Source: an uncultured Phycisphaerales bacterium (lineage in GTDB: Bacteria; Planctomycetota; Phycisphaerae; Tepidisphaerales; Tepidisphaeraceae). From it: DNA of 64,000 bases. The DNA is taken from NCBI GenBank assembly GCA_963755915.1, contig CAVWLP010000001.1:1-64000 (forward strand). The letters run 5' to 3'. The notes under the pieces are model-generated. The model made no database searches and was not told where the DNA came from. It saw only the letters and a list, made by a program, of their open reading frames with translations. The position numbers and the translations under genes are program-made. Position 1 is the first letter of the stretch; each line of letters opens with the position of its first letter. This document shows positions 37,123 to 54,592 of this stretch, one piece after another.

Positions 37123-37159
37123 TCAGAAATCCCCGCGAATCTCTGTCCAACTCCCCCTG

Positions 37160-39433
37160 CTACACCTTCCCCAAAATCGTCGAAGGCCGATTCTCCATCG
37201 GCATCGTCGTCACCCGCACACTGTGCGGCTCCTCCAGCCACAGCGCCGCGGTAATAATCCTCGGATAATACCGGCTCCCCTTCGCCTCCCCGCTGACGAA
37301 CTGGTCCGAGCACGCCCAGTACCCGCTCCCATCCGTCTGCCAGCGAACGTGCGCCCCATCCGCCTTGCGCATGATCGCCGCCACGCGCGGGTCCGTCTGC
37401 TCCAGCCGCAGGATCGCACGGGCGACATACTGGAAGATGGCAATCTTGCTCATCCACGAGTTGCTCGAGGTGGACGACAGCTTGATCCCCCCATCCGCAA
37501 ACAAGTTCGCGGTCTCACGATCGGTCAGCAGCTTGACCGTATGCCGACGCAGCGCCGCGATCAGGTCTCCCTGAAGATGCCGCGCCAGCATTTCCGGCGC
37601 ATCCCCTGCCGTAAGGATCGGCCACTGCCGAATCAAATCCAGCCAATACGCCGGATAAACCAGCGCCTCCGCCACGGGCAAAATCCTCGACGCATACCCC
37701 GGATTATTCTTCTCCAGCACCGCGGGAATGGCCCCATCCACAGCCGAATCCACCAGCGTCTGCGCCAGTTGATCCGCCAGACTCCCCAGCGGCTCCGCCG
37801 GCACGTCGCCCGCCACAATCCGCAGCCGCGACATCACCTCCAGCGCGATCCACGTCGCCCAGCACTTGGTACCCAGATAGGTATTCGCCCGCGCCTGCCC
37901 CAGCGATTCATCCAGCGAGTCATACGTGGTGATTTCCTTCCCATCCTCGCACCGCGAGCTGTCATGGGCCATCAGCCCGGTTCGCGGATTGGCCCGCGCC
38001 GCCATGCTCTGGGCGCACGCATCCAGCAGATGCTTGTTGGCCAGCATCCAGTCGATATCCCGCGTCGCCACGACATATGAAGCAGCCATCAGCACCCAAT
38101 TACAAAGCTGCTCCTGCGTCATGTATGAGAAGCACCCCTTCAGATGCGCCAGCTCATAGCTGCTGTCGCCCGGCGGGGAAAAATTGTTGTTGATACCCAT
38201 GTCATGACAAAACGAAATCCCCCCCGGCAGCAGCGCCGAGCGCGATTTCACCTGGTCGTGATAGCTATACCTTCGCGCCGCCAGCGAAAGAATATTCCGC
38301 ACCGCCCACGGATTATATTTCAGCTCCCAGAACATCTGATCGACCGCCAAGTCGAGGGTGTTCATCATGCAGTATTCACCCTCGTTCACGATCCACACCG
38401 GCTCCCCGCCCACATCGAGCAGTTGCGTATTCCCGTAATATCCGCGCGTCCCCTGCGCGATCTGAAACTGCTGGTCTTCAGAAAGTCCCGAATCCATCAG
38501 CTTCGAATCCAGATCCGCCGCCGTCGCGCGAAGCTCGCCGGCGCGATCCAGCCCCGTCATCAGGACTTCGTCGAGATTTGTGTAATAGCGGTTGTAGTAA
38601 TACTGCCCTTCAAGCCCGGTAGTCGCGATGCCATCGAGATGTACGCCGATCGAAAGCACCAATGTTTTGCGGCACCCCGCCGGCACTTCCATCGCCAGCC
38701 CCGCGCAAGTTCCCAGCGCATGCACCGAATTGATATCCGTCAGTCCCTCAGCTACCAGCCAGCGCTGAAGCGGAAAAAATTCCCCGCCGGCATTTGGAAA
38801 ATCAGATTCGATGGTTCCCAGCACGCCCATGCTTCGCCGCCAGGCAAAGCCGATCTTCGTCTGACCCGGATCGTTGGACTCAAATTGCAAAATGCGCGCG
38901 CCGGGGTTGATGAAATCGATGGCAAAGACCCCGGTCTTGGTTTCCGTCCCCAGCCGGTTATCCACTTCAAGCGTTGCAACGACGCCCGGCAAGAGGCAGG
39001 CCTTCAGCGTTTCCGATTCGCCATTGGGCTCGGGAATTGGAAAAAAGGGTGAATAGATTGTGAACTTGAAATCAGGCGTCTGCCAGGTGTCGGTTGCCCA
39101 CCCAAACGTGCGCCGAATTTCGCTGACTTTGTACGGCTGAAGCGAGTGATGCACCGGCGGCGCATGCTCTTCATTGACTTCGTAAGATGAAGCCGGGTCG
39201 TGCAGCCCCGATCCCACCTTGAAAAACGGGAGGCAGCGGATGGGGTTAAACGACTTTTTTCCGCCGTGCTTCACACCGATGTAAAGGTTTTGATTGGCGG
39301 GCTTTCCGATTTCGACACCAATGCCGCCGGCGGTGTTGAAATGCCCGCAGGTAAAGCTCATGTACGCACCAATGGGCGCGTGCTGGGCGTTGAAGTTGAT
39401 ATTGCCCTGAAAGGGCAAGAGTTCACAAAACAC
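37160..39433 (-). CDS. Glycoside hydrolase family 52 beta-xylosidase
   Basis: FNAQHAPIGA.SFT, VNEGEY (nucleophile), MMNTLDL, HDMG, CFSYMT, TTYDSLD (acid/base), SRYYPR. No signal peptide. Confidence 0.9.
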   Translation of the reverse strand: MFCELLPFQGNINFNAQHAPIGAYMSFTCGHFNTAGGIGVEIGKPANQNLYIGVKHGGKKSFNPIRCLPFFKVGSGLHDPASSYEVNEEHAPPVHHSLQPYKVSEIRRTFGWATDTWQTPDFKFTIYSPFFPIPEPNGESETLKACLLPGVVATLEVDNRLGTETKTGVFAIDFINPGARILQFESNDPGQTKIGFAWRRSMGVLGTIESDFPNAGGEFFPLQRWLVAEGLTDINSVHALGTCAGLAMEVPAGCRKTLVLSIGVHLDGIATTGLEGQYYYNRYYTNLDEVLMTGLDRAGELRATAADLDSKLMDSGLSEDQQFQIAQGTRGYYGNTQLLDVGGEPVWIVNEGEYCMMNTLDLAVDQMFWELKYNPWAVRNILSLAARRYSYHDQVKSRSALLPGGISFCHDMGINNNFSPPGDSSYELAHLKGCFSYMTQEQLCNWVLMAASYVVATRDIDWMLANKHLLDACAQSMAARANPRTGLMAHDSSRCEDGKEITTYDSLDESLGQARANTYLGTKCWATWIALEVMSRLRIVAGDVPAEPLGSLADQLAQTLVDSAVDGAIPAVLEKNNPGYASRILPVAEALVYPAYWLDLIRQWPILTAGDAPEMLARHLQGDLIAALRRHTVKLLTDRETANLFADGGIKLSSTSSNSWMSKIAIFQYVARAILRLEQTDPRVAAIMRKADGAHVRWQTDGSGYWACSDQFVSGEAKGSRYYPRIITAALWLEEPHSVRVTTMPMENRPSTILGKV

Positions 39434-39455
39434 GACTGATACCCGGGCTCCCTTC

Positions 39456-39467
39456 GTAAGCGTTTAC
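39456..39467. promoter_or_regulatory. LacI-type operator 1 (upstream of GH52)
   Basis: GTAAGCGTTTAC just downstream of a minus-strand TAGAAT -10 box. Confidence 0.75.
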
Positions 39468-39545
39468 TTGACCTGAATCATTCTAGCGATTTTTAGGTGC
39501 AAGGGAAGAGAAATCGTTTGCTAGGCGAAACCAGCTCAAAAACGA

Positions 39546-40467
39546 CTATTGCTTCACCGCACCGCTGGTAAGCCCGCTAATAAACTCCTTCTGGAGCGAA
39601 AAGAACAGGATTGCCGGGGGAATCATGGCAATCAGCGTTCCCGCCAGAAAGATGCCGTAGTGCTCGACATACGTGCCCATGTACTGGTTCAGCACCACCG
39701 GCAAAGTCAGCTTCGCCTGCGATGTCAAAAAGATGTTCGGGCCGAGGAAGGCGTTCCACGCCCCCATAAAACTGATCAGGCAGAATGCCCCGCTCATGGG
39801 GCGAACCAAAGGCATGACCAGGGTCAGATATATCCGAAACTCACTGCATCCGTCGATCCGGGCCGCCTCCAGAAGTTCGTTGGGAACATTGAACATCGCC
39901 TGGCGGAAAAGAAATATTCCGAAGGCGCTGACTGCGCCGGGGATGATCAGGGCTTTGTAGGTGTCCATCCAGCCTAAACGCCAGATAACTTCGAAATTGG
40001 GCGCGAGAAGAACGACGCGCGGGAATGGTCATGGACGCCAGCATGTAAACCATCAAAACATTGCGCCCGCGAAAGCGATATTTGGCCAGCGCAAATCCAC
40101 CCAGTGAGCTGAAGAAAAGGGAGATGAACGTGATCGCGGAGGCGAGGAAAAGGGAGTTCACAACATATCGCCAGAAGCCGATCGGCCCGTCGCGGGTGAG
40201 GGTGGGTTCGAACAGACCCCGAAAGTTCGAGAGGTTCACGGTTTGCGAGGAGATCTGCGAAGGAGGCGGAAGGAACGAATACTGATTCATGATGTTCGTG
40301 TCCTTAAACGCCGAGCAGATGAGCCAGGCAAAGGGCGTCAGCATGATCGTCGCGACCAGAATCAGCACGGCCAGGCGCGCATATTTTAAGGCCGCGTGCC
40401 GCGAGATCGGCAACAGCACCACGAAGATGCCGGCAAGAACGAGGAGAAAAATCTGCATCCCGTTCAT
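39546..40467 (-). CDS. Carbohydrate ABC transporter permease (MalG-like; frameshift near 40015)
   Basis: NSL, GFALAK, ELLEAARIDG (EAA loop), LQKEFISGLTSGAVK. Confidence 0.88.
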
Positions 40468-41412
40468 GTTTCGCTCCCGACGGAACTGATGATGCGAATC
40501 TGGATCAGGCTGATAATTAGAATGATCCCCGTCAGGAGCCAGCCGACGACGGCCCCGGTGCCGAGGTCGCCGTTGGTGAAGGCGTTCTGATAGAGATAGC
40601 CAACGACGGTCAGCCCGCTGTTACTCGGTCCGTACCCTCCGCCATTGTTCTGAAGGAGGTTGAAAGGAAGTTCGAAGAGCTGGTAGGAGCCGATGGTGCT
40701 GGTGACGACAACGAAGGTTGCGACGGGCGCGATCGCCGGGACGGTGACATTCCAGAAAATCCCGCCGGCCCGGCGCCGTCGATGCGGGCGGCTTCGATCA
40801 GGCTTTGATCCACATTCTGCAGTGCCGCCAGGAAGTAGATCATGTTGAAGCCCACGTACATCCACATGGCCGCGATGATGATCGCCGGCATCACAAGCTG
40901 CGGATTTCCCAGCCATTGCTCTTCCAGCCCCCAGCCAACCAGCGCGTGCAGGGCGACGTTCAGCAGCCCGTAGTGCGGAGCAAACAGCACAGAGAAAATA
41001 ATTCCAACAAAGACCTGGCCGACAAGATTTGGCGCAAAGATCGCCAGGCGAAAGATGCCCTTGAGCCGGTCATTCTTGGCGTTGAGCAACATCGCCAGGC
41101 CAAGACTGAGCGGAAGCTGAAGGCAAATCGAAAATACGGCGAAAATCGTCGTGTTCCAGAGCGCCCTGTGGAAGTCCGGGTCTTTGATCACGAAGGAGAA
41201 ATTCCCCCAACCCACAAACGCCCGGCTGCGCCGGGCCGTCGGTCTCATAGAACGCCAAAATGGTCGCGTAAATCAGCGGATAAAGGAAAAACACGAGATT
41301 GAGAATGACATACGGCGCAGAAAAAATAAGGAGCAGCCCGCCCGCGCGGCCGGCGAACCACGGCCGGTTTCCGCGTGATGACTGCGGGTTTGGGAAGTGT
41401 GGCGGCGGTCAT
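40464..41412 (-). CDS. Carbohydrate ABC transporter permease (MalF-like; frameshifts)
   Basis: APYFF, FVGWGNF, LWNT, YFLAALQ, LIEAARIDGA, YLYQNAF. ATGA overlap with the next gene. Confidence 0.85.
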
Positions 41413-42778
41413 TGGGAATTCAAAAAAACATTTCGGCTCATGGCTACCCGCACCCGGTCCGCACATCGCTTCAATTCGGCACGCCCATACTCGCGCAGCC
41501 CGTCGGTGCCGTGCTGTTTGTAATAAAGCGAAATGTTGGTAAACGCTTCGGAAAGCTTCGCCTTCCCCAGGACGTTATAGGCGGTGTCATGCTCCTGCGG
41601 CACCAGGGCGCCAGCGCCGAGTAAACCTTCCCAAGCGAAAGGTTGCTGTAGAACGGATCCGGCTGCTGAAGCTCCGGCCGTCCCCAGGCCGCCTTCAGCG
41701 GCGGCAGAATGTGAGTCTCGGCAAATCGCGGGCCGAGCTGCGCCGGGTCATAGTAAAGATACATCGCCAGCTTCCAGGCAAGATCGAAATTCCTGCAATG
41801 CTTCGTGATCGCCAGCCCGCACCCGCCCCAGGTGCTGGTAGGCAGCCCGCCCGGTTCCCACACGGGCAGCGGCATCAAGGCAAGTTTTCCGGAGAGGCTG
41901 GGGATTTCCAGTTCGATTCGGTTGGAGCGCCAATCAGGACAAAAATAGAAGAGGCACAACCCGTCGATCATGGCCATCGCGAAGTTCTGCCCCTCGCCGC
42001 ACGGGAACGCGATTTGGCCCGGGCCTTCGATCTGCTGCACATACCAGCAGATCACATCCAGGGCGGCTTCGTTGTCGAAACTGACGCGCCCCTGCGCGTC
42101 GAAAACGGTGACGCCGTGCTGAAGGAGAAGGAGAATCAGCGTGTCGTTGCCGTCGGTCTGGAGATCGAGCATGTAGTGCTTGGGAACGCCGTCGGCTTGC
42201 GTGGTCTCCTTCACGACCTGCCGACCCACTCGCGCAAATTCATCCCACGTGGTGAGCTTATTGACGTCGATCCCAAGCTGCTCGCAAAGATCCCGCCGGT
42301 AAACCAGCATCACCGGATGAACATCGTGCGGCAACGCAAAAACATGCCCGCGCGACGACCATTTCGCCAGACGGTTGCTGACGAGCTGATCGCCAAGCCC
42401 GCTGGATTTAATCTTGTCGGTCAGATCGACGAAACCGACATCCTGAATCGGGCCCCTGGTGAAAAAGCCGATGGAGCCGTACATCAGCTCCACCATGTCC
42501 GGCACATCCGCGCCGACTTGAAGCGCCGCCTGAAGCCGGCTCTGAAGCGCGTTCTGATCGGTCAACTGGATCTGCACGTTGCAGTGGTTTTCCTCATCGA
42601 AACGCTCGACGGCCGCGCGATAGACGTCCGCCTGTTCCGGTACAAATGTCGCCAGGACCAGGTCCGGCTCCTGATAACCATGATGTCGGGAAACCGGCAC
42701 CCAAAGTGCCAGGCAAATGCCCGTGGCTAGAGCGATGATCAGAATCGCCAGTGGAACGGGGCCGAAGGGGAATTTCAT
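41409..42778 (-). CDS. Sugar ABC transporter solute-binding protein (frameshift near 41605)
   Basis: N-terminal hydrophobic anchor, DVPD, FVDLTD, LVYRRDL, TWDEF, WGGCGLAI (SBP family 1). Confidence 0.85.
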
Positions 42779-44421
42779 GGCGCCTCCGGTGGTGCGGTAA
42801 GGCACAGCGTGCTCACGCTGAACGGCGGCATCGCGTAATCCAACTCGTGCGAAGCGCCAATCGCCTGCCCGCCGGCATATTTCGGATCGGCGCCGCCCGC
42901 GGTGAGCTGATAGATCTCAGCATGGGTGTAGTCATCCGCATTGTGAAGTGAAACGCGTCCTTCAAGCGGGTGCTGCGTTTTGTTGATCAGAACCACGACC
43001 ATCCGCCCGTCCACTTGCGAATCAATGCTGGCGTAGATGGAGCATTTGGCGGCATTGCCGCTGACGGCGTGGATGGAAATATCGCCAAACGTCGCGCTTT
43101 TACCGTCGTAATTCCGATACATCTCGAACGCGCCGCCGATAAAAGGCATTTTTCCCATGTCCGGCCAAAGCGCCGCGGCAAAAACTCCTTCACGCCCGAA
43201 GATTCCGAGCACATCCGCCTGGGCGATCGCGCCGGAAATATCCCCCCCACCGCCGTAATTGTATTCGCTGATCGAAAGCTTCGTGCCGGGATAGCACTTC
43301 TCGATTTTGGCCCGCAGGGCGGGAATGAGACAGATCGGCGCACCGGTCGAATCCTGGGTGATCCAACTGTTTTCGGTGTAAGTCGGGTCCCAAAGAGACC
43401 GCGGCGCCTGGACCCGTGCGGCCACGACCGCCGGAGAGCTGTTTGTCGCTGGCCCGGTAATTCGCACCCCCCCGCCGGTGGCTTCCGGATACCAGTGAAC
43501 ATCCAGCACATCCAGAAGCCGGCGGCCCTGCGATTTCTCGGCCGCAGCCATGCGCTGAAGGTAATATTCCTGGAAATCGCGATTCTGCGCGTCGGCCGCC
43601 CCCTGGAGCCGGATATATCCAAACCATCCGTAGTTCACCGGCCCAAAAATGAGCGTCGAATCCATAACGTTCTTGATCGCGCCCGCATAGACGATCGATT
43701 GATCCACCAGCTCTTCGTAGGTGATCGGGTCGGAACGAATCTCCGGGTGCGTCTTGGTCCACCAGTCCGGCTCATTATCGAGGCTGAACCAAATCGGGCG
43801 ATTGATGTCGCTCAGGCAGTAGGGATAATTTGTCTTCACCCAATTGACGAATTCATCCTGATAAACAGCCGGGGCGTTGGACGATGGCCAAAGATAAAAC
43901 GGTCCATTTTTAGAAGGCCGGCTCGGTTTGAATCGCTTGCGAAGATAATCGGGGCCGCCGCTGCGCACATCGCCCGGCGGAGATTTGTCGGAGGAAACAT
44001 AACCGGCCATCGGAATCGTCAGCAGAATTCCCGCGTTGTGCTGGGAAGCAGCATCGAGTGCCGGCATGAGCGCGCCGCCGGGCGTATCCTCCTTCCCCTT
44101 AAACATATCGCCTGAAACCAGGTAGTCGTCGTTCTGGCAGAGGTAATCTGTGCCGGCATTCGAGGCGTTGTTGGTCCAGTTAAACGCGGTGAAGCGATTT
44201 CCGCCGAGGCGGGTGAATGTCAGGTTCGAATATTGGCCGCCCAGACCGTCGACGTAGCCGTGGAACTGATTGATTCCGTAGATGAATCGGGAAATCGGTT
44301 TGACGTCCTGCTGGGTATCGACGTCGAGTTGAACGGTCGCAACTTCCTGTCCGGCAGCGATGCCAAACAAGAAAAAGAGAGTGAGGATCGATGTAAAAAA
44401 GCGAATCATGGACGCCGCCAT
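42775..44421 (-). CDS. Secreted glycoside hydrolase family 44 (endoglucanase/xyloglucanase)
   Basis: ISRFIYG, RLGGNR..FNW..NASNAG.D, LDNEP..W..TH, LDVHWYPEA, RSLWDPTY, ISEYNYG. Signal peptide. Start 44421 or 44409. Confidence 0.9.
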   Translation of the reverse strand: MAASMIRFFTSILTLFFLFGIAAGQEVATVQLDVDTQQDVKPISRFIYGINQFHGYVDGLGGQYSNLTFTRLGGNRFTAFNWTNNASNAGTDYLCQNDDYLVSGDMFKGKEDTPGGALMPALDAASQHNAGILLTIPMAGYVSSDKSPPGDVRSGGPDYLRKRFKPSRPSKNGPFYLWPSSNAPAVYQDEFVNWVKTNYPYCLSDINRPIWFSLDNEPDWWTKTHPEIRSDPITYEELVDQSIVYAGAIKNVMDSTLIFGPVNYGWFGYIRLQGAADAQNRDFQEYYLQRMAAAEKSQGRRLLDVLDVHWYPEATGGGVRITGPATNSSPAVVAARVQAPRSLWDPTYTENSWITQDSTGAPICLIPALRAKIEKCYPGTKLSISEYNYGGGGDISGAIAQADVLGIFGREGVFAAALWPDMGKMPFIGGAFEMYRNYDGKSATFGDISIHAVSGNAAKCSIYASIDSQVDGRMVVVLINKTQHPLEGRVSLHNADDYTHAEIYQLTAGGADPKYAGGQAIGASHELDYAMPPFSVSTLCLTAPPEAP

Positions 44422-44489
44422 GGGAGTACCATCATCGCTGGATGGGACGAGAAGCTCAATTTTCCTCCGCCGCTTGACGTAATCGCCAC

Positions 44490-44501
44490 GTAATCGTTTA
44501 C
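44490..44501. promoter_or_regulatory. LacI-type operator 2 (upstream of GH44-ABC operon)
   Basis: GTAATCGTTTAC, 3 bp downstream of a minus-strand TG-n-TACAAT extended -10. Confidence 0.75.
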
Positions 44502-44613
44502 GCGATTGTACCAAAAAAAGTCCCCTACTCGTGGTAAGCAGGGGAACTTCAAAGAGGAGGGTATGTTACGTCAAATCATCCCGGATCACAAAAACCGGGA
44601 GGAAATTTCGTCA

Positions 44614-45609
44614 TCAGACCTTTTTGGCCCGGCGGCGGGCCATTAAACCAACAGCGCCGAGGCCGAGCAAACTTAGGGTCGCCGGCTCTGGGACAAGGGC
44701 GACCTGGAATCCGTCGAGGTACGTTGAATCGGAATTCTGGCCAGAGCCGGTGCCGCCGAATCCGTATACGGTGACTGAGCCGTTGCCGTTCGCCGTCAGA
44801 TTGAACACCGCCGGAGCCGGGGTGGTGCCGGCCGCCCAGGTAATGGACTGCATGTCAGAGGGCGCGGTGAAGGTATTGTTGTTGGCTGGAGTCGCCGCCC
44901 ACCATCCGTCCAAACCGCCGGACGTTGTTGGTGCGGTTGCCGTCCAATTCGTGGTGTGGCTGCCGCTGGAATCATAGGAATAGAGAGCGATTTCGTAGGG
45001 CGCATCTGGAATCAGACCGCCAAACTGTACCTGGACGTAGTTCGTGCCCTGGACGTTGCTGCCGCTGGTACCAGCAAAGATAAAGTCCTGAAACATATCA
45101 TTGTCGCCCGCGCCGTTCGGGCCGGTGGGGCTGCCGCGATCGCGCGAATTCATCGACGCCGTGCCGTTCACCTGCGCATAGTCGGCCGAATTGTTTGTGG
45201 TATCGATGCCGATCGTCACCGTCGTAGGCGTGATTGGATTTTGCGGACCATAGTTGTAAGGACTAATTAAGGGAGGACCATTGAAGGTGAAAGTTTTCGT
45301 TATGCTCGAGGCATTCACGTTGGGGCTCGACTGACTCGAGGGCAATTGGGTGTTATCGCCGCCCGAATAGGCATTACCTCCCCAGGGGGACCAAAGAACG
45401 CCGTAAGGATCGGCCGTGAAAGCGCCGCTACTTACATTTTCATTCCAGCCATTCGTAGGTGTTTGGGCGCCGCTGAGCGGGCCGCCGTTGAGATCCACCG
45501 ACAAAAAGGCGTTGGTCAGAGGCCCAGTGAAAGTACCGGTGGAAGCGAATGCTCCCGAGGCGTACAGGCCCAAAGTTGATACCGCCAGGACTGCAAGATT
45601 CCGCCGCAT
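44614..45609 (-). CDS. PEP-CTERM sorted surface protein
   Basis: GGAGG RBS, signal peptide, beta-rich body, VPEPATLSLLGLGAVGLMARRRAKKV. Confidence 0.9.
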   Translation of the reverse strand: MRRNLAVLAVSTLGLYASGAFASTGTFTGPLTNAFLSVDLNGGPLSGAQTPTNGWNENVSSGAFTADPYGVLWSPWGGNAYSGGDNTQLPSSQSSPNVNASSITKTFTFNGPPLISPYNYGPQNPITPTTVTIGIDTTNNSADYAQVNGTASMNSRDRGSPTGPNGAGDNDMFQDFIFAGTSGSNVQGTNYVQVQFGGLIPDAPYEIALYSYDSSGSHTTNWTATAPTTSGGLDGWWAATPANNNTFTAPSDMQSITWAAGTTPAPAVFNLTANGNGSVTVYGFGGTGSGQNSDSTYLDGFQVALVPEPATLSLLGLGAVGLMARRRAKKV

Positions 45610-45733: not shown

Positions 45734-45775
45734 GTAAACGATTACTGAATTTACACTGCCCAGGACGCGTGTCAA
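45734..45775 (-). promoter_or_regulatory. Sigma70 promoter plus LacI-type operator 3
   Basis: Minus strand TTGACA-N16-TAAATT, followed 2 bp later by the operator (plus strand GTAAACGATTAC, 45734-45745). Confidence 0.75.
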
Positions 45776-46066: not shown

Positions 46067-46110
46067 TTGACAACGCGAAGAGGGACAAGTTATAACTAGT
46101 AATCGGTTAC
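46067..46110 (+). promoter_or_regulatory. Sigma70 promoter plus LacI-type operator 4
   Basis: TTGACA-N18-TATAAC, followed 2 bp later by GTAATCGGTTAC (46099-46110). Confidence 0.78.
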
Positions 46111-46189
46111 TTGAAGGTTTGGACACGTGGCTGGCGGGTATTCGGTGCGGTTTAGGGGCTTGGCGGAGGTCCGGAAAGGCGAGAACTTC

Positions 46190-47251
46190 ATGTCCACACA
46201 GACCCTTAGACAATCCAAAGAGTGCCCCAGCCGAGCAGGCGGTTTTACCTTGGTTGAGTTGCTCGTTGTCATCGGAATTATCGCATTACTGGTTGCAATT
46301 CTCCTTCCCGCACTGAACCCGCGCGAGCAGGCCATGTTGGTGCAGTGCCAATCGAACGAGCGCCAGATCGGCCTGGCGATCTTCATGTATGCGGGTGACA
46401 ACCAGGGGTCTCTGCCGATGGGGTATTGGGACGGGTCGTGTGTGAATGGAACTTTTACTGGTATCGCAGCCGGCTCCGCACAGCAAGGCAATTATGCCAC
46501 CTTCTGGTCAGTCGAAATTATGCCCTACATCGCCAAAGGCGGTGCTACGTGGAATAGCAACGCCCAAAACGGCGGAACGAACAGCTCGATTCGAAGGGTA
46601 TTTTGCTGCCCGGAAGTCCCTGCCGACGAATATAGTCTGACAACGTCCGCCACAGTCACGCAATACGTAAGCCATCCGCGCCTGATGCCGTGGATGCCTG
46701 GTGGACTGACCTCAACCGGCGGCACCCCATGGCCCAATCCTGATCCGATTACAGGGAAATATCCCCAGCCTTATCGGCTGGCCCACATCAAACAAAGCGC
46801 AGAGATCGGAATGATTTTCGACGCCGCATTGGTGGTTGACCCACCTCCCCCCACGGGCAGCGGTTCGGGAATGAATGCTTTTGATACGGTTCCCGTGGGA
46901 TGCCAGATCGATGGTGGGGTCATGAATCCGGATAACCAGCCGACCACTTACATGACGGATCAATATTCGTATTCCGGAAACACCAGCAGTTCGCTTAACG
47001 GCGGACAGTCGATTAGCGCAGCCGCCGCGCATTACGTCCCCTATTCAAACCCCCTGAACATAAACATGGATACCGCCATCAATGATGGCATTGGCACAAA
47101 CGGGGGACAGTTCGGAAACCTCCGATTCAGGCATGTCGGCAACACCCAGTGCAATGTGCTTTTTGCCGATGGGCACGTCCAGGCCTTTACCTACACCGCA
47201 AAGACTCGAGTAACCGATCTGCTTCGCAAAAACCTCTATGTGAATCCCTGA
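46190..47251 (+). CDS. DUF1559 prepilin-type N-terminal cleavage/methylation protein with H-X9-DG C-terminal motif
   Basis: G^[35 protein letters not shown], and RH...NVLFADGHV. Confidence 0.92.
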
Positions 47252-47282
47252 GTGGTCGGTGGAAACGGCTTGGGAATAGCAC

Positions 47283-47759
47283 ATGGGTTTCCGCGAACAG
47301 CTCAATCGGAAGCCAACCTTGAGCGCTGGGGTCGTATTCGGACTCCTGGCGCTGCTGGCTGTCTGGGCTCTGGTTGTGCGGTTGACGAACCGCGCATCTT
47401 TGCAGGCAGGTGGCGAAATCTATTTCAGCACCAATGATGGAAAAACCTGGTTCGCGAACCCGGCCATGAATCAGCCGCCGTTTGACTACGATGGCGCCAC
47501 GGCCGTGCGCTGCTACGTCTTTCGCGTTGGTGATTCAGCCTCTTTTGTCGGCTATTTGGAAACCAATACTCCCCAGATGTACGATCTGCTCACCGGTGTT
47601 TCGCACGGTCCAGGCGCGCTGCCCGCCGGTGGAACGCTGGTCAAAAAGCCTGGCGCTGGAACTTGGGTGCCGGCGATGAGCCCCGCCGGAATGAAGATTA
47701 CCAACGTAACTGATCCCGCCGGCTCCGGCGAAGAACCGCAACCAGTCTTACCGGAGTAA
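47283..47759 (+). CDS. Small membrane-anchored hypothetical protein
   Basis: Single N-terminal TM, then YFSTNDGKTWF...PPFDYDG..AVRCYVF...FVGYLE...LVKKPG..WV. Directly follows the DUF1559 gene. Confidence 0.75.
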   Translation: MGFREQLNRKPTLSAGVVFGLLALLAVWALVVRLTNRASLQAGGEIYFSTNDGKTWFANPAMNQPPFDYDGATAVRCYVFRVGDSASFVGYLETNTPQMYDLLTGVSHGPGALPAGGTLVKKPGAGTWVPAMSPAGMKITNVTDPAGSGEEPQPVLPE

Positions 47760-47773
47760 AGGGAAACCACCCG

Positions 47774-49591
47774 ATGCCAAACCCGCGGCTGAACATTCTT
47801 TTCAATTCTTTTGCCGCGATTGCCGTTGCCGGTGCGATCATCGCCTGCACCGCGTGCAGCTCCACCACCGAAACATCCCCCAAGCCCGACCGCCAGATGC
47901 TTCCCCCAACCGGGCTCCGCGCTTTCACGCCTTTTGGCGATCAGATGGCACTCGAACGGCTCCAGATCGTCGCCGTCGATCATCCGAAGTTCAATTCCGC
48001 CATTCAGGTCCAGACCCAGGGCGGCGCAAGGGTCGATTGGAACACCGAAATCATCGCGCCGGTCACCGAGCCTGTTAAGCGCGGCGAGGTGCTTCTCGCA
48101 CATTTCTGGCTGCGCTGCACAAATTCCATGACCGGCGAAGGATATACCTCCTTCGAATTCGAGCTGAACCACGGCGAATACGACAAGGCCGTCGATTTTC
48201 GAATCAGCGCCGAGCAGCAATGGAAAGAGGTTTTCGTACCCTTCGAGGCCGACCGCGATTTCCCCCTTGGCGAGGCCCGCATCTGCTTTCGAACCGGGTT
48301 CGATCAGCAGACCATCCAGCTCGGCGGCATCGAGCTTTTGAATTTTCACGACCGCGTGAAGTTGTCACAACTGCCGGCGACCAAGATCACCTATGCGGGC
48401 CGTGACCCCAACGCCCAGTGGCGCAAAGACGCCCTGGCCCGCATCGAGAAAATCCGCAAAGGAAATCTGGACATTTACGTGACCGATTCCGATGGCCGGC
48501 CCATCGAAGGCGCGACCGCCCACGCGGTGCTTCGCCGGCATGCCTTTGGATTCGGGACCTGCGTGGACGCCAGTTTCCTGACAGGAAATACGCCCGATGA
48601 CGAGCGGTATCGCCAAACGGTTCTGGCGCTCTTTAACCGCGCGGTCTTTGAGAACGACATGAAGTGGCCGGAGATTTACGACGGTGTTCCCCCGATGGTC
48701 GACCAATCCGTGAAATGGCTTCTCGATCACCACTTCAAGATCCGTGGCCACAACCTGATCTGGCCAAGCTGGCAATGGATGCCCCCGCAACTGGAGGCGT
48801 ATGCCTACGATCCGAAAAAGCTGCGCCAAATCATCGCCAAACACATCACGGACACCGTAACCCATTTTCGCGGCCAGATGATCGACTGGGACGTGGTAAA
48901 CGAGCCGTTCACCAATTACGACCTGTTCGACGACCTGGGAATGGGCGCCGGGCAGCTCGTGGTGCAGTGGTACAAGCTCGCCCACCAGGCCGATCCGAAC
49001 TGCCGATTGTTTCTCAACGACTTCGGCATTCTCGACGGCCCCGCCTTTAGCGAGCATCGCGAAAACTTTTCCGAAAACATCTCCTATCTCCAGCAGAGCG
49101 GCGCCCCCATCGGCGGCATCGGAATTCAATCTCACTTCGGAACCGAAATCCCACCGCCCGAAAACATCATCAAGATCCTCGACCGGTTTTCCAAATTCAA
49201 TCTGCCCATCGAATTGACCGAAGTGAGCATCAATCTCCAGGACCGCCAGCTCCAGGCGGATTACCTGCGCGATTACCTGATCGCCTGCTTCTCCGAGCCG
49301 CGCGTCGAAGCAATCATGATGTGGGGATTCTGGGCCGGCCGCCACTGGCGGCCCGAAGCCGCGCTCTATGACCTCCAATGGAACATCCGGCCGATCGGCC
49401 AGACATGGATCGACCTCACGCAAAAACAGTGGACCACCGACGCGACGGCCATGACGGACTCCAGCGGCGTCGCCAATGTGCGCGGTTTTTACGGAACCTA
49501 CGAAATCACCATTACCGCCGGATCGAAGCAGCAGACCGTAACCACCGAATTGAAGCCCGGCGGTTCTCGCCTTGACGTTCACATGGAGTGA
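47774..49591 (+). CDS. Glycoside hydrolase family 10 (endo-xylanase-like) with N-terminal CBM-like domain
   Basis: ENDMKW, RGHNLIW, WDVVNEP (acid/base), GIGIQSH, ELTE (nucleophile), WGFW. Signal peptide, possibly lipoprotein. Confidence 0.9.
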   Translation: MPNPRLNILFNSFAAIAVAGAIIACTACSSTTETSPKPDRQMLPPTGLRAFTPFGDQMALERLQIVAVDHPKFNSAIQVQTQGGARVDWNTEIIAPVTEPVKRGEVLLAHFWLRCTNSMTGEGYTSFEFELNHGEYDKAVDFRISAEQQWKEVFVPFEADRDFPLGEARICFRTGFDQQTIQLGGIELLNFHDRVKLSQLPATKITYAGRDPNAQWRKDALARIEKIRKGNLDIYVTDSDGRPIEGATAHAVLRRHAFGFGTCVDASFLTGNTPDDERYRQTVLALFNRAVFENDMKWPEIYDGVPPMVDQSVKWLLDHHFKIRGHNLIWPSWQWMPPQLEAYAYDPKKLRQIIAKHITDTVTHFRGQMIDWDVVNEPFTNYDLFDDLGMGAGQLVVQWYKLAHQADPNCRLFLNDFGILDGPAFSEHRENFSENISYLQQSGAPIGGIGIQSHFGTEIPPPENIIKILDRFSKFNLPIELTEVSINLQDRQLQADYLRDYLIACFSEPRVEAIMMWGFWAGRHWRPEAALYDLQWNIRPIGQTWIDLTQKQWTTDATAMTDSSGVANVRGFYGTYEITITAGSKQQTVTTELKPGGSRLDVHME

Positions 49592-51315
49592 AAATCCGCG
49601 CCATGACGATGGCAACGATGAAAACATCTCTCGCCGCGGATCTCGTCGATGGAACCCTGATCCAGCTCAACGACAACGGCGCCTGGTGCTGGTTTCAGGA
49701 CCCGCGGATGGTCATCGACCGCACAAACAACACCGTGCTGATCTCCTCGATCGCCAGCTCGCAGGGAACCGGCGGCGAAAATCGAGCCGGAGACGTGGAC
49801 ATAGTGACGTTTCATCCGGACACGGCACAGACCACGCGATCTGTCTTGCATCGCGGCCTCCAGCCCCAGGACGATCACAATGCAGCGGCACTCCTGATCC
49901 GTCCGGACGGGCGCTACCTGGCGATGTATTCACGCCACAATCGCGACAATCTCTCGTATTACCGAATATCGACGCGTCCCCACGATGCCAGCGATTGGGA
50001 GGCTGAGCGCACGTTCGACTGGTCGGATGCGATCACCGCGGCCGGAGCCAATTGCCACGTCACCTATTCCAATCTCTTCCATCTCCCTGCCGAAAGAAGG
50101 GCATACAATTTCTCACGCGCACTCAACGATGACCCCTCAATCCTGATCTCCACCAATGATGGCGACGACTGGACCTTTGGCGCCAAACTCCTCACGGAAG
50201 CAAAGCTCGGATACGTCAACGGCTACACAAAATACGCCTCGAACGGCATCGACCGAATCGATTTCCTCACCACCGAGCACCACCCGCGCGATTTCAACAA
50301 CAGCATCTACCACGGCTTTATCAAGGGCGGCAAACTTTACCGTTCGGATGGATCCGTCGTGGAGCAAAACCTCTTCGCATCCCCCGGCCATTCGCAAACC
50401 GAACTCACAAAAGCCTTCGCGGCCGGCAGCATTTTCCACGGCGAAAAGATGACGCACGCGTGGACAATTGCAATCGGCGTTGACGCTCGCGGCAATCCCT
50501 ACGGCCTGATCTCCGCGCGGGCCAACGATCAGCCGGAAAATACCAATTTCCAGGATCACCGCTTCTTCTACATCCGATACGACGGCAGGCAATGGCAGGC
50601 CCGTCAGCTCGCCAAAGCCGGCGCCAGCCTCTGGGACGCTGAGGAAGATTACACAGGCCTCGCCTCCCTGAATCCCGCCAATCCGAATGAAGTCTTTATC
50701 TCGACCACAATCGATCCGCGCGATGATTCGCCCCTTTCACTGCACGAAATTTTCCACGGCACAACCGAAGATGAAGGACAAACTTGGACCTGGCGCCCCA
50801 TCACACGGAACTCGACGGTCGAAAATCTCCGCCCTCTCGTGGTCGCGTGGGACCGCGACAGTTCGTTGCTCGCTTGGTTCCGGGGAACGATGAGCCGCTC
50901 GCAGGTCTACGACTGTGCGATGGTCGGCGTTCTGCTTCGAAAAGATGAAACGCGGGAAAGGATCCAGTTTTTTCCGTCGGCCGCGCTGGGCAATCCGAAT
51001 GGCGCCCTGGCCCTGCCAGCCGTCGATCAGAGCGGGGGCTACGACGTATACGCTTTCTTCTGGTGCAAATCGGGCCGCGACGGACAGTTCACGGCCGGCC
51101 TCGCGCCCGATCGAATTATGACTCATCGGACGCGCTCCGCACAACAGGCAGAACCCTCCCAGTTTGCCAGCGAGGTCGCCATCGCTAATGGCAACCGTTT
51201 ACTATATCGTGTCTATCTTGGTCGAGCCCTCGTAAGATCGGGCCAGCCGATTCGAATCATCGCCGGCAGCCCGAATTTCGCCGGAGCAGGCTATTGCAAA
51301 GTTCAGCAGCCATGA
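49588..51315 (+). CDS. BNR-4 repeat (beta-propeller) protein
   Basis: NGAWCWFQDPR, DDHN, TYSN, STNDGDDW, TEHHPR, TEDEGQTW Asp-boxes. Confidence 0.8.
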   Translation: MKIRAMTMATMKTSLAADLVDGTLIQLNDNGAWCWFQDPRMVIDRTNNTVLISSIASSQGTGGENRAGDVDIVTFHPDTAQTTRSVLHRGLQPQDDHNAAALLIRPDGRYLAMYSRHNRDNLSYYRISTRPHDASDWEAERTFDWSDAITAAGANCHVTYSNLFHLPAERRAYNFSRALNDDPSILISTNDGDDWTFGAKLLTEAKLGYVNGYTKYASNGIDRIDFLTTEHHPRDFNNSIYHGFIKGGKLYRSDGSVVEQNLFASPGHSQTELTKAFAAGSIFHGEKMTHAWTIAIGVDARGNPYGLISARANDQPENTNFQDHRFFYIRYDGRQWQARQLAKAGASLWDAEEDYTGLASLNPANPNEVFISTTIDPRDDSPLSLHEIFHGTTEDEGQTWTWRPITRNSTVENLRPLVVAWDRDSSLLAWFRGTMSRSQVYDCAMVGVLLRKDETRERIQFFPSAALGNPNGALALPAVDQSGGYDVYAFFWCKSGRDGQFTAGLAPDRIMTHRTRSAQQAEPSQFASEVAIANGNRLLYRVYLGRALVRSGQPIRIIAGSPNFAGAGYCKVQQP

Positions 51316-51341
51316 ATCGATTCGTGTATAATTCGGGTGAA

Positions 51342-52348
51342 ATGAGCAAACGGCCAACGATCACCGATGTTGCCCGCCTCTGCGGCGTCACTGCCGCAAC
51401 GGTCAGCCGGGTTCTCAACGACAAGAAAAAGAACTTTTCAACCACCGAAGCCGTTCGCCAGAAAATCTGGGACACCGCGCGAACTGGGATACGTTCCCGA
51501 TCTAAGCGCGAAGCCTTAGCCTGCGAAACACGCGCGTCATCGGCTTGTTCGCCTCGCCGCAGACCCACGTCGCCGAAGGCATCAACGAATCTTTGCTGGA
51601 AGGAATCGCCGAAACGCTCCACTCAGGCGGCTACGACGTTTTCTTCGGCATGAGCCCCATCCGCAGCACCAAAAACCCGCTCCCCTTCTGGCGATTCGAC
51701 GGCGCAATTCTCATGCAGGCCCCCAAACCCGAGACCGTAACCGAGCTGGGTTTGCGGCGCGTGCCCTACGTCTGCGTGAACGAACGCGTCGGAAATCCAG
51801 CCGCTTACGTGGTTGCCGACGACGCCATGGGAATGAAACGTGCCATCTCCCATCTCACCCAACTCGGCCACAAGCGTTTCGCTTACGCCAACGCCCGGGC
51901 GGCTTATTTCAGCCACTACAGTGTCAACGAAAGATACGGAACATTGCTGGCAGCGGCGCGCGATGGGACCATCAAGCTGGTCCCCGGTCACGACACGCCC
52001 TTCCACTCACCCGCGGAATTCCTGAAAGTGATGGTTGGCGAAGGGGGCGCCACCGCAGTGATCACCTACGATCACCAGATCGCCGTGATGCTGCTCGGTG
52101 CCGCGTATGGAATGGGGATACGGATTCCACAGGACTTCAGCCTGATTTGCTTTAACGATGTTTTCCCGGTGGCGATGCTCTATCCGCCGCTGACGGCCGT
52201 GGCCGTCGCCGGCCGTGAGATGGGTCGCCTTGGCGCGGACTTGCTGCTGAATCATTTGCTTTCGCCGCAGCCGCATAGTGGACGGGAGATTCGAGTTTCC
52301 GAAGACCTGATCGTCCGCGGTTCGACGGCCCCCCCCCCGGCCGCGTAA
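51342..52348 (+). CDS. LacI family transcriptional regulator (frameshifts near 51480-51520)
   Basis: TITDVARLCGVTAATVSRVLN HTH, and sugar-binding domain with HLTQLGHKR, IPQDFSLICFND, PPLT, LIVRGST. Confidence 0.9.
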
Positions 52349-52402
52349 AGCGCAGATTCCTCAAATTGTTCCCCGTTTAACTTCTGAATTGCCCTTTTTT
52401 TC

Positions 52403-52445
52403 TTGACAGCTATTCGCGCCACAGTAATATATAGTAAGCGTTTAC
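52403..52445 (+). promoter_or_regulatory. Sigma70 promoter plus LacI-type operator 5
   Basis: TTGACA at 52403, AT-rich -10 region at ~52425-52433, then GTAAGCGTTTAC (52434-52445). Confidence 0.75.
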
Positions 52446-52489
52446 GTCAGCACATTCCAGTATTTTGCGGTTTTTGGCGGAGGGCCAAT

Positions 52490-54565
52490 ATGTCACGCGG
52501 AAAAAAGGCGTTGTGTATAGCGTCCAGCGCGGCGGCGTCGATCATTTTATCCCGCTCTGTCTATGCGGGTTTGACAATCACTCCTGGTCCCAATAGCGGG
52601 GCCGTCGGCGCCTATTGGCCTTCTTCGACCAGTGGCCCGGATCCCTCATCCGCTGTTGGTTACGACCCCTCGATCGATAGCGGCGACGGCATCACCACCG
52701 GGTCGCCCAACAACGATGGACAAACCGAAGTCCAGGAGGGAATTGGCAGCGGCTATTTCTCGGTCCTTGCCCAAACCTTCCAGACCGGTTCCACAGGATT
52801 TACTCTCGGTGAAATTGCATTCGTTGCCGAGGCTTCGGGAGATGGCAATGATACTACCGATTTTAGTCTTCATCTTTTCCAGCTAAACAGCACGGTGACA
52901 CCCACATCCACTGGTTATACTCTAAGCACTGCCGAAGCTGCCGGAACGAACGATTTGCTGGGTGGCGGCCATGGACTTAACTTTACGTTTGGAAGCGGGG
53001 GAATTCCCGAGAGCGTTCAGCAATTCGTGCTTAACGCCAGCGGCACAGACGATCAAGTTAACCTTCTGCCAAATACGGAGTATGCGATTGAGCTCTGGGG
53101 CAATCAGCTTTCCACGCACAATGTCCTTCTCTTTCGCCCCAGCGGTAGCGACACCGCTCCCGGGGGCCCCTACCCCTACACGGGCGGACAGGCCTACCAG
53201 CTCTCCAGTTCCACCATCACGAATGCCGGCCAATCCGACCATAGCACTGTTTCGCGCGGCGAAGTCGCCGGCTCCACGCGCGATCTTCTCTTCGCGCTTT
53301 ATCAGGCGCCCCCGCCAAATGTAACGGCAACCTGGACCGGCGCTTCGACCGCCAACAATAGCAACTGGACAGACTCCACCAACTGGACCGGCGGCGTTCC
53401 GGGAACGACGCCGGGCGACACCGCCCTGTTTCCAGCGATGGCATCGTCGACCACCGCCGACCTGAACGGATCGCAAACGCTCGGCATGGTCACCTTCAAC
53501 GGCCCTGCTTACACCATCGCCCAGGGCACCGGCGGCGGTTCGCTGGTGCTGGAAAATGTCAACAATACAACCGCGACCATCAACGATCTCTTCGGCAGTT
53601 CAACGATTACGGCCCCGATTAACCTCGAATCCAGCGTACAGATCGCCGTCGGACAAACGGACAATACACTGACCCTTTCCGGTGCAATCAGCGGCGTCGG
53701 GGGGATCTCCCTCGCCGGCGACACCAATGCCCTCATGGCCGGCACCGTCGAACTCAGCGGCACCAACAGCTATTCCGGCACAACCTCCGTCGCCAGCGGC
53801 GAACTCCTCGTTGCACCCAGTGGTTCCGCCACTGTCAGCCCCTTGCCCATCGGCGGCGCTGTCACCATCACCGGCGGGTCAGTTGTCCTAGCATCTAACG
53901 TAACCCTCGGATCAGGAACCATTCCTCACCCCGCCAGCAATGTGACCCTCAGCTCGCTCACGATCTCCGGCAACGGCGTTTTCGACATCGGTAACAACCA
54001 CATCATCCTCACCTACACCGGCGCCAGCCCCATGTCCACGATCCTGGGCTATATGCAATCCGGCTACAACAACGGCGCTTGGAACGGTCCCGGCATCATC
54101 TCCTCGGCCGCTGCCCTTGAAAACTCCACGGCCAACGCTCTCCAATATGGCATCGGCTGGGCAGACGGCGGCGACAAAGTTGGCGATGTTGCCGGCCTCA
54201 CCAGTGGTGAAATCGAACTCAAGTACACGCTGCTCGGTGACGCCAATCTTGACGGCAGTGTCAACGGGACCGACTTCTCGATCCTGGCCGCGAACTTCGG
54301 GCTAGGCCTTACGAACTGGGACCAAGGCAACTTCCTGTTTGGCAGCTCTGTGAACGGTTCGGACTTCAGCGCGTTAGCTTCGAACTTCGGCCAGGGTGAC
54401 AGCGGAAACGCTGTAACTGTTGCCGACGTCGCGGCCCTCGACGCCTTTGCGGCCGCCAATGGCTTGGCGATACCTTCCTTCAGCGCGGTGCCAGAGCCCG
54501 CCTCCCTTGGATTGCTGGCAATCGGCACTCTCAGCCTGATGAATCGGCGCAAACGCCACCACTGA
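52490..54565 (+). CDS. PEP-CTERM surface protein with autotransporter-associated beta-strand repeat and dockerin-like Ca-binding repeats
   Basis: GGAGG RBS, signal peptide, GTVELSGTNSYSGTTSVASGEL repeat, GDANLDGSVNGTDF / GNFLFGSSVNGSDF, VPEPASLGLL...RRKR. Confidence 0.88.
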   Translation: MSRGKKALCIASSAAASIILSRSVYAGLTITPGPNSGAVGAYWPSSTSGPDPSSAVGYDPSIDSGDGITTGSPNNDGQTEVQEGIGSGYFSVLAQTFQTGSTGFTLGEIAFVAEASGDGNDTTDFSLHLFQLNSTVTPTSTGYTLSTAEAAGTNDLLGGGHGLNFTFGSGGIPESVQQFVLNASGTDDQVNLLPNTEYAIELWGNQLSTHNVLLFRPSGSDTAPGGPYPYTGGQAYQLSSSTITNAGQSDHSTVSRGEVAGSTRDLLFALYQAPPPNVTATWTGASTANNSNWTDSTNWTGGVPGTTPGDTALFPAMASSTTADLNGSQTLGMVTFNGPAYTIAQGTGGGSLVLENVNNTTATINDLFGSSTITAPINLESSVQIAVGQTDNTLTLSGAISGVGGISLAGDTNALMAGTVELSGTNSYSGTTSVASGELLVAPSGSATVSPLPIGGAVTITGGSVVLASNVTLGSGTIPHPASNVTLSSLTISGNGVFDIGNNHIILTYTGASPMSTILGYMQSGYNNGAWNGPGIISSAAALENSTANALQYGIGWADGGDKVGDVAGLTSGEIELKYTLLGDANLDGSVNGTDFSILAANFGLGLTNWDQGNFLFGSSVNGSDFSALASNFGQGDSGNAVTVADVAALDAFAAANGLAIPSFSAVPEPASLGLLAIGTLSLMNRRKRHH

Positions 54566-54592
54566 GCGCAGCCAATAGCGCCTGTCGAAACC

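Follow-up and report, generated by a model that had tools for sequence, protein, structure and literature searches.

A predicted xylan regulon of a soil planctomycete that links a DUF1559 pilin-like protein and PEP-CTERM proteins to glycoside hydrolases

How do planctomycetes without SusC and SusD move polysaccharides across the outer membrane, and what is the role of their DUF1559 proteins? A locus within a 64 kb stretch of DNA from an uncultured Phycisphaerales bacterium (the whole stretch being referred to here as the window) bears on both questions. The locus, at positions 37160–54565, contains genes for glycoside hydrolases of families GH52, GH44 and GH10, a BNR_4 propeller, an ATP-binding cassette (ABC) sugar importer, a LacI-family repressor, a DUF1559 type IV pilin-like protein with a small partner, and two PEP-CTERM surface proteins, PEP1 and PEP2 (Table 1). 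Scanning of the 14 open reading frames (ORFs) of the locus against Pfam recovered every gene named in an original prediction for this DNA in the place assigned to it (the helix-turn-helix, HTH, of the LacI gene was found separately). None of the 14 matches a TonB-dependent receptor or a porin, whose absence had also been predicted, and with no matches to Plug, TonB_dep_Rec or SusD among them the locus does not count as a SusC/SusD locus. We read it, with moderate confidence, as a xylan- or xyloglucan-oligosaccharide regulon of soil Tepidisphaeraceae equipped with a private envelope module of pilin and PEP-CTERM proteins that would aid glycan uptake. At the level of sequence, a shared operator shows that the xylan enzymes and the genes for the pilin-like protein, its partner and the PEP-CTERM proteins are predicted to be co-regulated, and their linkage is conserved; the localisation of the proteins, their binding of glycans, the formation of a filament and the direction of transport are inferred.

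The operator is a palindrome, GTAANCGNTTAC, present in the window in five exact copies and one with a single mismatch, all six of which lie inside the locus (0.59 are expected in the window, and none of 100 shuffles reaches six). The exact copies fall one to a promoter in front of five transcription units, namely GH52; GH44 with the binding protein and permeases; PEP1; DUF1559 with the small partner, GH10, BNR_4 and LacI; and PEP2. Both the operator common to five units and its presence at the pilin-like and PEP-CTERM genes as well as at those for carbohydrate-active enzymes (CAZymes) are thus as originally predicted. A −10-like hexamer precedes each exact site, 12 nucleotides (nt) away at GH52 and 2–3 nt away at the other four; at the DUF1559 promoter an alternative hexamer, TTATAA, has N17 spacing and lies 3 nt from the operator. 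Within the DUF1559 unit the gaps between genes are only −4 to 31 nt; PEP1 and PEP2 are each followed by a terminator-like hairpin. LacI-family repressors usually bind palindromes with a central CG, and the LacI gene of the locus encodes an intact protein of 352 amino acids (aa), with both the HTH and a Peripla_BP_3 effector domain, once +CG at 51475 and +GC at 51505 are allowed for. The cluster would be a regulon under this repressor, with the palindrome as its predicted operator; since all five promoters, which are sigma-70-like, are closely followed by GTAANCGNTTAC, the repressor without its inducer should shut the five units together.

Across the 6.63 Mb of the source genome (G000) there are 10 exact sites, half of them in the locus. 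One of the others precedes a 1008-aa protein in which a GH10 catalytic domain is fused to a PEP2-family PATR stalk (L011:6227–9250, corresponding to G000:C2:2372226–2375249). Two more, 1 kb apart, front a second DUF1559–PATR pair and a unit encoding PEP-CTERM, GDSL esterase and PcRGLX proteins, and the remaining two, near an MTHFR gene and near an ORF without an assigned role (C3:1395093), may be chance occurrences. A TonB-dependent receptor sharing the operator would have offered another route of uptake, as the original prediction recognised; none of the three such receptors in the genome has a site upstream at one mismatch or fewer, and one site with a single mismatch lies within a receptor ORF. 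About 35 kb from the locus the window also holds a gene for a BBP2 (OmpL-like) beta-barrel porin (330–1775, minus strand), adjoining an AraC regulator gene (1943–2740); it has no operator and is a candidate general outer-membrane channel.

The arrangement is conserved among relatives. The closest GH10 loci come from soil and peat genomes of Tepidisphaeraceae and further Phycisphaerae, and five congeners keep PEP1 divergent from or adjoining the DUF1559, small-partner and GH10 genes, operators included. All twelve genes and five operators occupy the same places in G001; G009 and G005 have the locus without GH44, G005 also lacking BNR_4 and having two tandem pilin genes; and G002 and G004 are represented by partial contigs with DUF1559, small partner and GH10. 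The motif is dense in such regions: the window and 14 related loci, 314 kb in all, contain 52 sites, compared with the 10 in the whole genome. A compact unit composed of operator, a 1011-aa PATR protein, DUF1559 and GH10 is present in the complete genome of the cultured Fontivita pretiosa B-254, flanked by purH, CTP synthase and other housekeeping genes. The synteny that had been proposed as a check is therefore retained with its operators in the five congeners, and in reduced form in F. pretiosa and other Planctomycetota.

The association extends beyond the genus. Among 64 loci with GH10 homologues, a DUF1559 gene lies within 1 kb upstream and on the same strand in 8/15 from Phycisphaerae and 3/11 from other Planctomycetota (11 of 26 Planctomycetota loci in total), in one of four from Armatimonadota, and in none of 28 from Bacteroidota or six from the remaining groups. 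An Armatimonadota locus (L129, from a Fimbriimonadaceae metagenome-assembled genome) has LacI, then a DUF1559-like prepilin gene, then the GH10 homologue, and lies outside the Planctomycetes–Verrucomicrobia–Chlamydiae (PVC) group, to which, to our knowledge, DUF1559 is usually described as confined. In 7 of 15 Bacteroidota loci (31 large ORFs scanned in all, a part of those present) the GH10 homologue is directly preceded by SusC, SusD and a protein sorted by the type IX secretion system (T9SS), and in one further Bacteroidota locus SusD adjoins a truncated ORF. By this analogy the pilin/PEP-CTERM pair is in the position of the set of SusC, SusD and T9SS-sorted protein next to a homologous GH10, a likeness of position and not of mechanism, and it is on such positional analogy that a role as a stand-in for SusC/SusD would rest.

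The DUF1559 protein (353 aa) has several features of a type IV pilin. First, its leader is a class III signal peptide, G/FTLVE (G at −1, F at +1, E at +5), which matches PF07963 at 27.8 bits (cut-off 21.2) and the prepilin leader model TIGR02532 at 19.5 bits (cut-off 16.3), this and the PEP-CTERM models being what NCBIfam adds for the locus proteins. Second, PF07596 (DUF1559, SBP_bac_10) is matched at 45.2 bits against a cut-off of 23.3, over profile positions 4–134 of 268. Third, a structural model built from 110 sequences (predicted local distance difference test, pLDDT, 83.9; predicted template modelling score, pTM, 0.83) has a long alpha-1 helix (residues 21–70) and a head of about 280 aa. 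Fourth, though the scores are low, a VIA structural search returns 24 chains with Z of 2 or more, all of them type IV pilins or pseudopilins, including PilA4 (Z 4.4, the best), ComP (3.6), EpsG (3.4) and PulG (2.7). The protein had been taken for a member of the H-X9-DG group, which does not hold: TIGR04294 scores 16.8 bits against a cut-off of 19, and the spacing in the locus protein, as in alignment A2, is H-X11-DG. Nor do the named pilin and pseudopilin models of NCBIfam accommodate it, with 24.5 bits against 88.85 for GspG (TIGR01710, only the N-terminal helix being aligned), 19.3 against 80 for GspH, and PilA also far below its cut-off. Our reading of the model is a scaffold of the pilin type that bears a novel head.

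DUF1559 is a very large family (a search with the locus protein gives 193,903 representative clusters at E ≤0.001, many of them probably drawn in by the leader helix alone, and 14,450 at 1e-10), and one planctomycete carries 68 paralogues (PMC10632474). No function is assigned to DUF1559 in the papers we found that mention it, and our literature search found none linking it to polysaccharide use and none joining pseudopilin, Phycisphaerae and glycoside hydrolase; a 2024 paper on Phycisphaerae genomics makes no mention of pili, pilin, PEP-CTERM, TonB or SusC. The Pfam identifier SBP_bac_10, the use of the term solute-binding proteins for the family in one paper (PMC4807772), and the presence of an ABC importer in the same regulon would fit a protein that stays in the inner membrane and feeds the importer as a periplasmic solute-binding-type component. 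We consider this highly improbable: the 24 structural matches include no periplasmic binding protein, an SBP_bac_1/8 binding protein is already encoded in the locus, and in the F. pretiosa locus no sugar-type ABC importer or binding-protein gene is present among the ORFs scanned in 21.7 kb, the ABC genes there being of other kinds.

Both PEP-CTERM proteins pass the family cut-offs (PEP1 and PEP2 score 28.1 and 23.9 bits with PF07589 against 20.7, and 25.8 and 23.7 with TIGR02595 against 16). PEP1 belongs to no sequence family beyond PEP-CTERM in Pfam or NCBIfam, and its 97 homologues, whose named taxa are mostly Tepidisphaeraceae, carry no annotation beyond PEP-CTERM or hypothetical protein. 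PEP1 itself is modelled (pLDDT 89.9) as a beta-jelly roll, and the structural comparison that had been suggested for it does find a fold like that of carbohydrate-binding modules (CBMs): the VIA matches are CBM-like C-terminal domains of Bacteroides GH2 enzymes (Z 10.2, 9.0 and 8.7), YxiM (8.4), the xylan-binding CBM22 of GH10 xylanases (7.8–6.6) and a xyloglucan-binding CBM4-2 variant (7.0). The modelled jelly roll probably binds polymer, a shared fold being no proof of binding. A dockerin replaces the PEP-CTERM signal in two of the homologues. PEP2 consists of an unmatched head, a stalk of PATR beta-strand repeats, a dockerin-like pair (by eye) and the PEP-CTERM signal. The heads of its family vary, with an enzyme in L011 and a Laminin_G_3 domain on the same type of stalk in L057, which gives the family the look of a display scaffold whose heads can be exchanged.

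The small partner is less readily placed. A word-index search gave four proteins, and a profile was then used over whole genomes, which finds the family in 44 of 151 genomes of the class and in 18 of the 20 genera of its own family. ESM Atlas returns unnamed Planctomycetota clusters for it (and generic PEP-CTERM clusters for PEP1). Two paralogues on contig C2 of G000 lie directly downstream of genes for HEAT-repeat proteins of 1122 and 951 aa (L055:8166–12025 and L059:8068–11453, respectively), and in two other genomes the domain occurs inside open frames of 877 and 1009 aa.

Pilin and partner stand out in a comparison of G000 with G001, a congener about 90% identical to it. The LacI protein is 100% identical between the two, the permeases 98–100%, GH52 98%, the binding protein 97%, GH10 93%, GH44 92%, PEP1 88%, BNR_4 79% and PEP2 75%, and then identity drops to 40% in the small partner and 38% in the DUF1559 pilin. 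In the DNA, the two loci are 90% identical as far as position 46399 and 92% identical from 47919 on; between these, over 46400–47918, no similarity can be detected. The left edge of the divergent segment is at the end of the alpha-1 helix (residue ~70) and the right edge at about codon 48 of GH10, just past its leader. What is new is that the pilin head, the partner gene and the GH10 leader have been exchanged as one 1.5-kb cassette between close relatives. The G001 allele is the outlier, at 35–43% identity to all other pilin orthologues. General hypervariability of DUF1559 genes was considered and is ruled out by a second DUF1559 locus (L013), which aligns collinearly with G001 for 10 kb, across its pilin gene as well, at 89% identity; the cassette is therefore a local replacement and not a product of general hypermutation. 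Short-read contigs of two runs stop at 46402 and 46408, which hints, weakly, at the presence of both alleles in the soil sampled. The exchange argues, as far as sequence can, that head and partner work together and that, within the pathway, one such pair can be exchanged for another.

Interchangeable pilin alleles would also suit exposed adhesins under diversifying selection, and the four envelope proteins do diverge fast (43–51% identity where the enzymes have 61–90%), as would be expected if the pilin-like and PEP-CTERM proteins served only to attach the cell to plant debris or to alter its surface, with no glycan transport. We think this rather improbable, because some 70 pilin genes, every one placed in the locus of a different sugar, exceed the needs of general adhesion, and because a CBM-like fold in PEP1 suggests that a specific polymer is recognised, though recognition would also serve adhesion.

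The scale of the phenomenon is apparent from the genome as a whole, which contains 63–71 DUF1559 ORFs, 12–14 small-partner genes, 45 LacI-family ORFs and 123 PEP2 paralogues, PEP2 itself being one (some of the ORFs counted are fragments from frameshifts). Of 71 DUF1559 ORFs, 23 have a LacI-family gene within 3 kb (mean of 100 random placements 3.0, maximum 8), 38 a PEP-CTERM ORF (12.2, maximum 20) and 33 a PEP2-family gene (9.1, maximum 18), and 10 have a small-partner gene within 500 nt (0.4, maximum 3). All seven of the other DUF1559–small-partner cassettes examined lie in loci for other sugars (a count made without a random control), which contain, respectively, an alginate lyase; a heparinase-like protein and a sodium-solute symporter; oxidoreductases and NagB; LacI with sortilin/BNR and F5/8-C proteins; three GH53 and two GH2; LacI and GH130; and LacI with GH43 and GH16. 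Machinery that could serve these proteins is present, with three EpsH-type exosortases, at least four secretins, a prepilin peptidase, two PilT-family ATPases above the curated cut-off and several GspE/PilB-like ATPases.

The enzymes allow the rest of the pathway to be sketched. The GH10, GH44 and GH52 domains all exceed their Pfam family cut-offs, and GH10 matches 140 xylanase sequences in the PDB, the best being beta-xylanase 7d88. Judging by an IIAC lipobox (by eye), GH10 is a probable lipoprotein, whereas GH52 is probably cytoplasmic because its domain begins at residue 27 and leaves no space for a signal peptide (by eye). The BNR_4 protein has no sequence match in the PDB and no evident signal peptide. 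If family membership is a guide, the GH10 lipoprotein and the secreted GH44 would cut the polymer outside the cytoplasm, the binding-protein-dependent ABC importer would take in the oligosaccharides, and GH52, probably together with the BNR_4 propeller, would complete their breakdown in the cytoplasm. Exosortase would sort PEP1, with its CBM-like fold, and PEP2, a predicted beta-helix stalk with an unmatched head, onto the cell surface. The DUF1559 protein would be a private pilin-like subunit, processed by the prepilin peptidase of the genome and taken up by a shared, PilT-equipped type IV filament machine with a secretin, and the small membrane protein would be its cognate accessory factor. 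On the model of DNA-uptake pili, the filament would most likely help glycan chains to reach or cross the outer membrane. A second precedent comes from other planctomycetes, in which dextran binds to pili-like fibres (PMC5394234). A Thermogutta transcriptome reports raised expression of genes for type IV pili and for secretion on xanthan.

A machine of this kind could also be pointed outward. The DUF1559 protein would then be a locus-specific pseudopilin adapting a type II secretion-like apparatus to push out GH10 and GH44, with the small partner aiding assembly. Both enzymes bear export signals and have to get to, or past, the outer membrane; EpsG and PulG, two pseudopilins, appear in the list of fold matches; the secretins and GspE/PilB-like ATPases could supply the apparatus; the exchanged cassette carries the GH10 leader along with the pilin head; and the pilin gene directly precedes the GH10 gene in 12 of the 64 loci. 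Nonetheless export seems to us unlikely. No ATPase of the genome reaches the GspE equivalog cut-off (615 bits for the best, against 630), the scores with the GspG and GspH models fall as far short as noted above, and loci that have the enzymes without a pilin gene (L098–L100) would lack their exporter adaptor. We also know of no cargo-specific pseudopilin.

The uptake reading can be extended to the family at large. DUF1559 proteins may be substrate-induced, interchangeable subunits of a retractile type IV filament, a 'glycan-uptake pilus', that reels polysaccharide through a secretin into the enlarged periplasm of planctomycetes. Lectin-like PEP-CTERM proteins would be the surface catchers, and a single machine would be shared by all the sugar loci, each contributing a pilin, an accessory protein and lectins of its own. 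The analogy is with the competence pili that take up DNA, and we offer it as a tentative proposal that may well prove wrong.

Several observations weigh against a dedicated uptake module at this locus. First, the structural comparison favours a pilin only in part: VIA matches only pilins, and weakly (best Z 4.4), while Foldseek finds no match to the DUF1559 model in the PDB at E ≤0.001. About 240 residues of the head are structurally unmatched, so that no sugar-binding fold is seen in it. Second, a reversed-pattern control also gives 10 sites genome-wide, equal to the operator count, and isolated sites may therefore be chance; it is clustering and context that carry the operator argument, not the total. 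A promoter scan is likewise at chance overall (7 found, 6.9 expected), its two best matches being those that abut the operators of PEP1 and PEP2. Third, a DUF1559 gene is directly upstream of the small-partner gene in just 10 of the 30 best loci, and other small-partner genes adjoin housekeeping or HEAT-repeat genes. Fourth, L098, L099 and L100 keep GH10, GH52 and GH44 (and, except for L098, the ABC genes), but neither a DUF1559 gene nor a prepilin motif is present in the DNA examined. Finally, a xylan-specific receptor would be expected to be conserved, and pilin and partner are at 38% and 40% where the enzymes are at 92–100%, an exchange that suits exposed pilins better than such a receptor. 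Of the original interpretation, then, the shared operator, the conservation and the CBM-like PEP1 stand, and a strictly dedicated role for the pilin has against it the loci without one and the replacement of its head by one only 38% identical.

The locus resembles several known systems without coinciding with any of them. With the SusC/SusD loci of Bacteroidota it shares the assembly into one substrate-regulated cluster of CAZymes, sorted surface proteins and an envelope step, but it has no TonB-dependent transporter or SusD, it includes an ABC importer and a cytoplasmic GH52, a LacI repressor replaces hybrid two-component or extracytoplasmic function (ECF) control, and sorting is by PEP-CTERM and exosortase rather than T9SS. 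Gram-positive LacI/ABC loci for xylo-oligosaccharides, such as that of Geobacillus stearothermophilus, have the same extracellular GH10, CUT1-type ABC importer, cytoplasmic GH52 and repressor with promoter-overlapping operators; here there is an outer membrane, and the regulon adds pilin-like and PEP-CTERM proteins. Type IV pilins and pseudopilins (PilA, GspG/PulG/EpsG, and ComP, a DNA-uptake minor pilin) share the N_methyl leader and, going by the model, the long alpha-1 helix and C-terminal sheet, whereas the 353-aa DUF1559 protein has a large unmatched head and its approximately 70 paralogues are scattered in sugar loci, not beside assembly genes. The two PEP-CTERM proteins exceed curated cut-offs and the genome has exosortases, as in PEP-CTERM/exosortase sorting elsewhere, yet the substrates here are in catabolic, sugar-repressed units and one is CBM-like. 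In Pseudomonas aeruginosa, pilA is grouped with accessory genes (tfpO–tfpZ) in allele cassettes, and there too a variable pilin head and a small downstream gene are exchanged together, with a breakpoint just past the conserved N-terminal helix; the cassette described here differs in lying within a catabolic operon and including the leader of the next enzyme gene, and a second DUF1559 locus shows no such exchange.

The coordinates of these features are collected in Table 1. In the window as deposited, the reading frame shifts in the two permease genes, in LacI and towards the 3′ end of the gene for the binding protein. Contigs from four public soil-metagenome runs of one study (depth below 5 in several of the contigs) differ from it by eight small indels, at 40017, 40760, 41231, 41319, 41605, 46319, 51475 and 51505, mostly in G+C-rich and several in CGCG-like contexts; the +C at 40760 is present in all four runs. 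These errors, all within 18 kb (37000–55000), break five genes. Seven runs were found in total, none of them listed as RNA. Applying the indels yields uninterrupted ORFs of 306, 334, 465, 352 and 375 aa, and the corrections are taken as right because these five frames become whole. That the permease, binding-protein and LacI genes are pseudogenes is ruled out, every frame being restored by the eight contig indels. The 81% completeness assigned to the three-contig, 6.63-Mb assembly fits systematic indel errors, and probably reflects them; other split ORFs (e.g. 2789–4933 and 4926–6273) may have the same cause. The locus is on the 93,186-base contig C1, and its orthologue in G001 is within a 1.4-Mb contig.

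Table 1. Features of the locus, with positions in the 64 kb window.
Feature	Position	Strand	Details
GH52 beta-xylosidase	37160..39433	-	Pfam PF03512, 432.1 bits; 98% identity to G001 orthologue
Operator O1, GTAAGCGTTTAC	39456..39467	.	23 nt upstream of GH52 start; 12 nt downstream of TAGAAT
ABC permease 2	39546..40467	-	BPD_transp_1; 306 aa after removing 1-nt assembly error at 40017 (run X1); uncorrected permease pieces with BPD_transp_1 (Pfam), 39546-41248(-)
ABC permease 1	40464..41466	-	BPD_transp_1; 334 aa after correcting 40760, 41231, 41319
ABC-importer sugar-binding protein, membrane-anchored	41409..42805	-	SBP_bac_8 and SBP_bac_1; 465 aa after +G at 41605; listed, uncorrected ORF 41471-42805(-)
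GH44 glycanase, N-terminal signal peptide	42775..44421	-	Pfam PF12891, 165 bits; putative start at Met32 of listed ORF 42775-44514(-)
Operator O2, GTAATCGTTTAC	44490..44501	.	upstream of GH44; 3 nt downstream of TACAAT
Terminator-like hairpin after PEP1	44545-44521
PEP1, PEP-CTERM surface protein	44614..45609	-	PF07589, TIGR02595; listed ORF 44614-45705
Operator O3	45734..45745	.	2 nt downstream of PEP1 promoter TTGACA-16-TAAATT
Operator O4, GTAATCGGTTAC	46099..46110	.	2 nt after TTGACA-N18-TATAAC; DUF1559 operon promoter
DUF1559 type IV pilin-like protein	46190..47251	+	N_methyl 27.8 bits, PF07596 45.2 bits; listed ORF 46127-47251
Exchanged cassette	46400..47918	+	pilin head, small partner, first ~48 GH10 codons; ~1.5 kb
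Small partner, 158 aa, N-terminal membrane helix	47283..47759	+	no Pfam or NCBIfam match
GH10 endoxylanase, CarboxypepD_reg-like C-terminus	47774..49591	+	PF00331, 161.8 bits
BNR_4 beta-propeller, predicted from family	49588..51315	+	PF15892, 57.6 bits
LacI-family repressor	51342..52348	+	PF00356 40.2 bits (HTH 51342-51473), PF13377 85.4 bits; uncorrected LacI-type Peripla_BP_3 ORF 51545-52348(+)
Operator O5	52434..52445	.	3 nt downstream of PEP2 promoter TTGACA-16-TAATAT
PEP2, PATR and PEP-CTERM surface protein	52490..54565	+	Pfam PATR, PEP-CTERM; listed ORF 52403-54565
Terminator-like hairpin after PEP2	54601-54616

Elsewhere in the window, a two-partner secretion (TPS) set occupies 9650–17853 on the minus strand, with a ShlB/FhaC-type transporter (16249–17853) and a TPS-domain ORF (15400–16236), the latter and a 1872-aa ORF without a Pfam match (9650–15265) being probably one exoprotein split by an assembly error. 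A GH28 pectinase-like gene followed by a DDE transposase gene lies at 20116–23042.

The locus makes DUF1559 function testable, since it offers a defined repressor site, five promoters, a known substrate class and a natural allele swap, at a time when, according to a 2024 survey (PMC11131199), the CAZyme clusters of planctomycetes are without functional characterisation. Cultured relatives could be used, including F. pretiosa with its three-gene minimal operon and Terricella alpina, which is reported to grow on xylan (PMC13514998). If a glycan-uptake pilus does exist, it would identify the dextran-binding fibres of crateriform structures, and would give a function to one of the largest function-less families in PVC bacteria.

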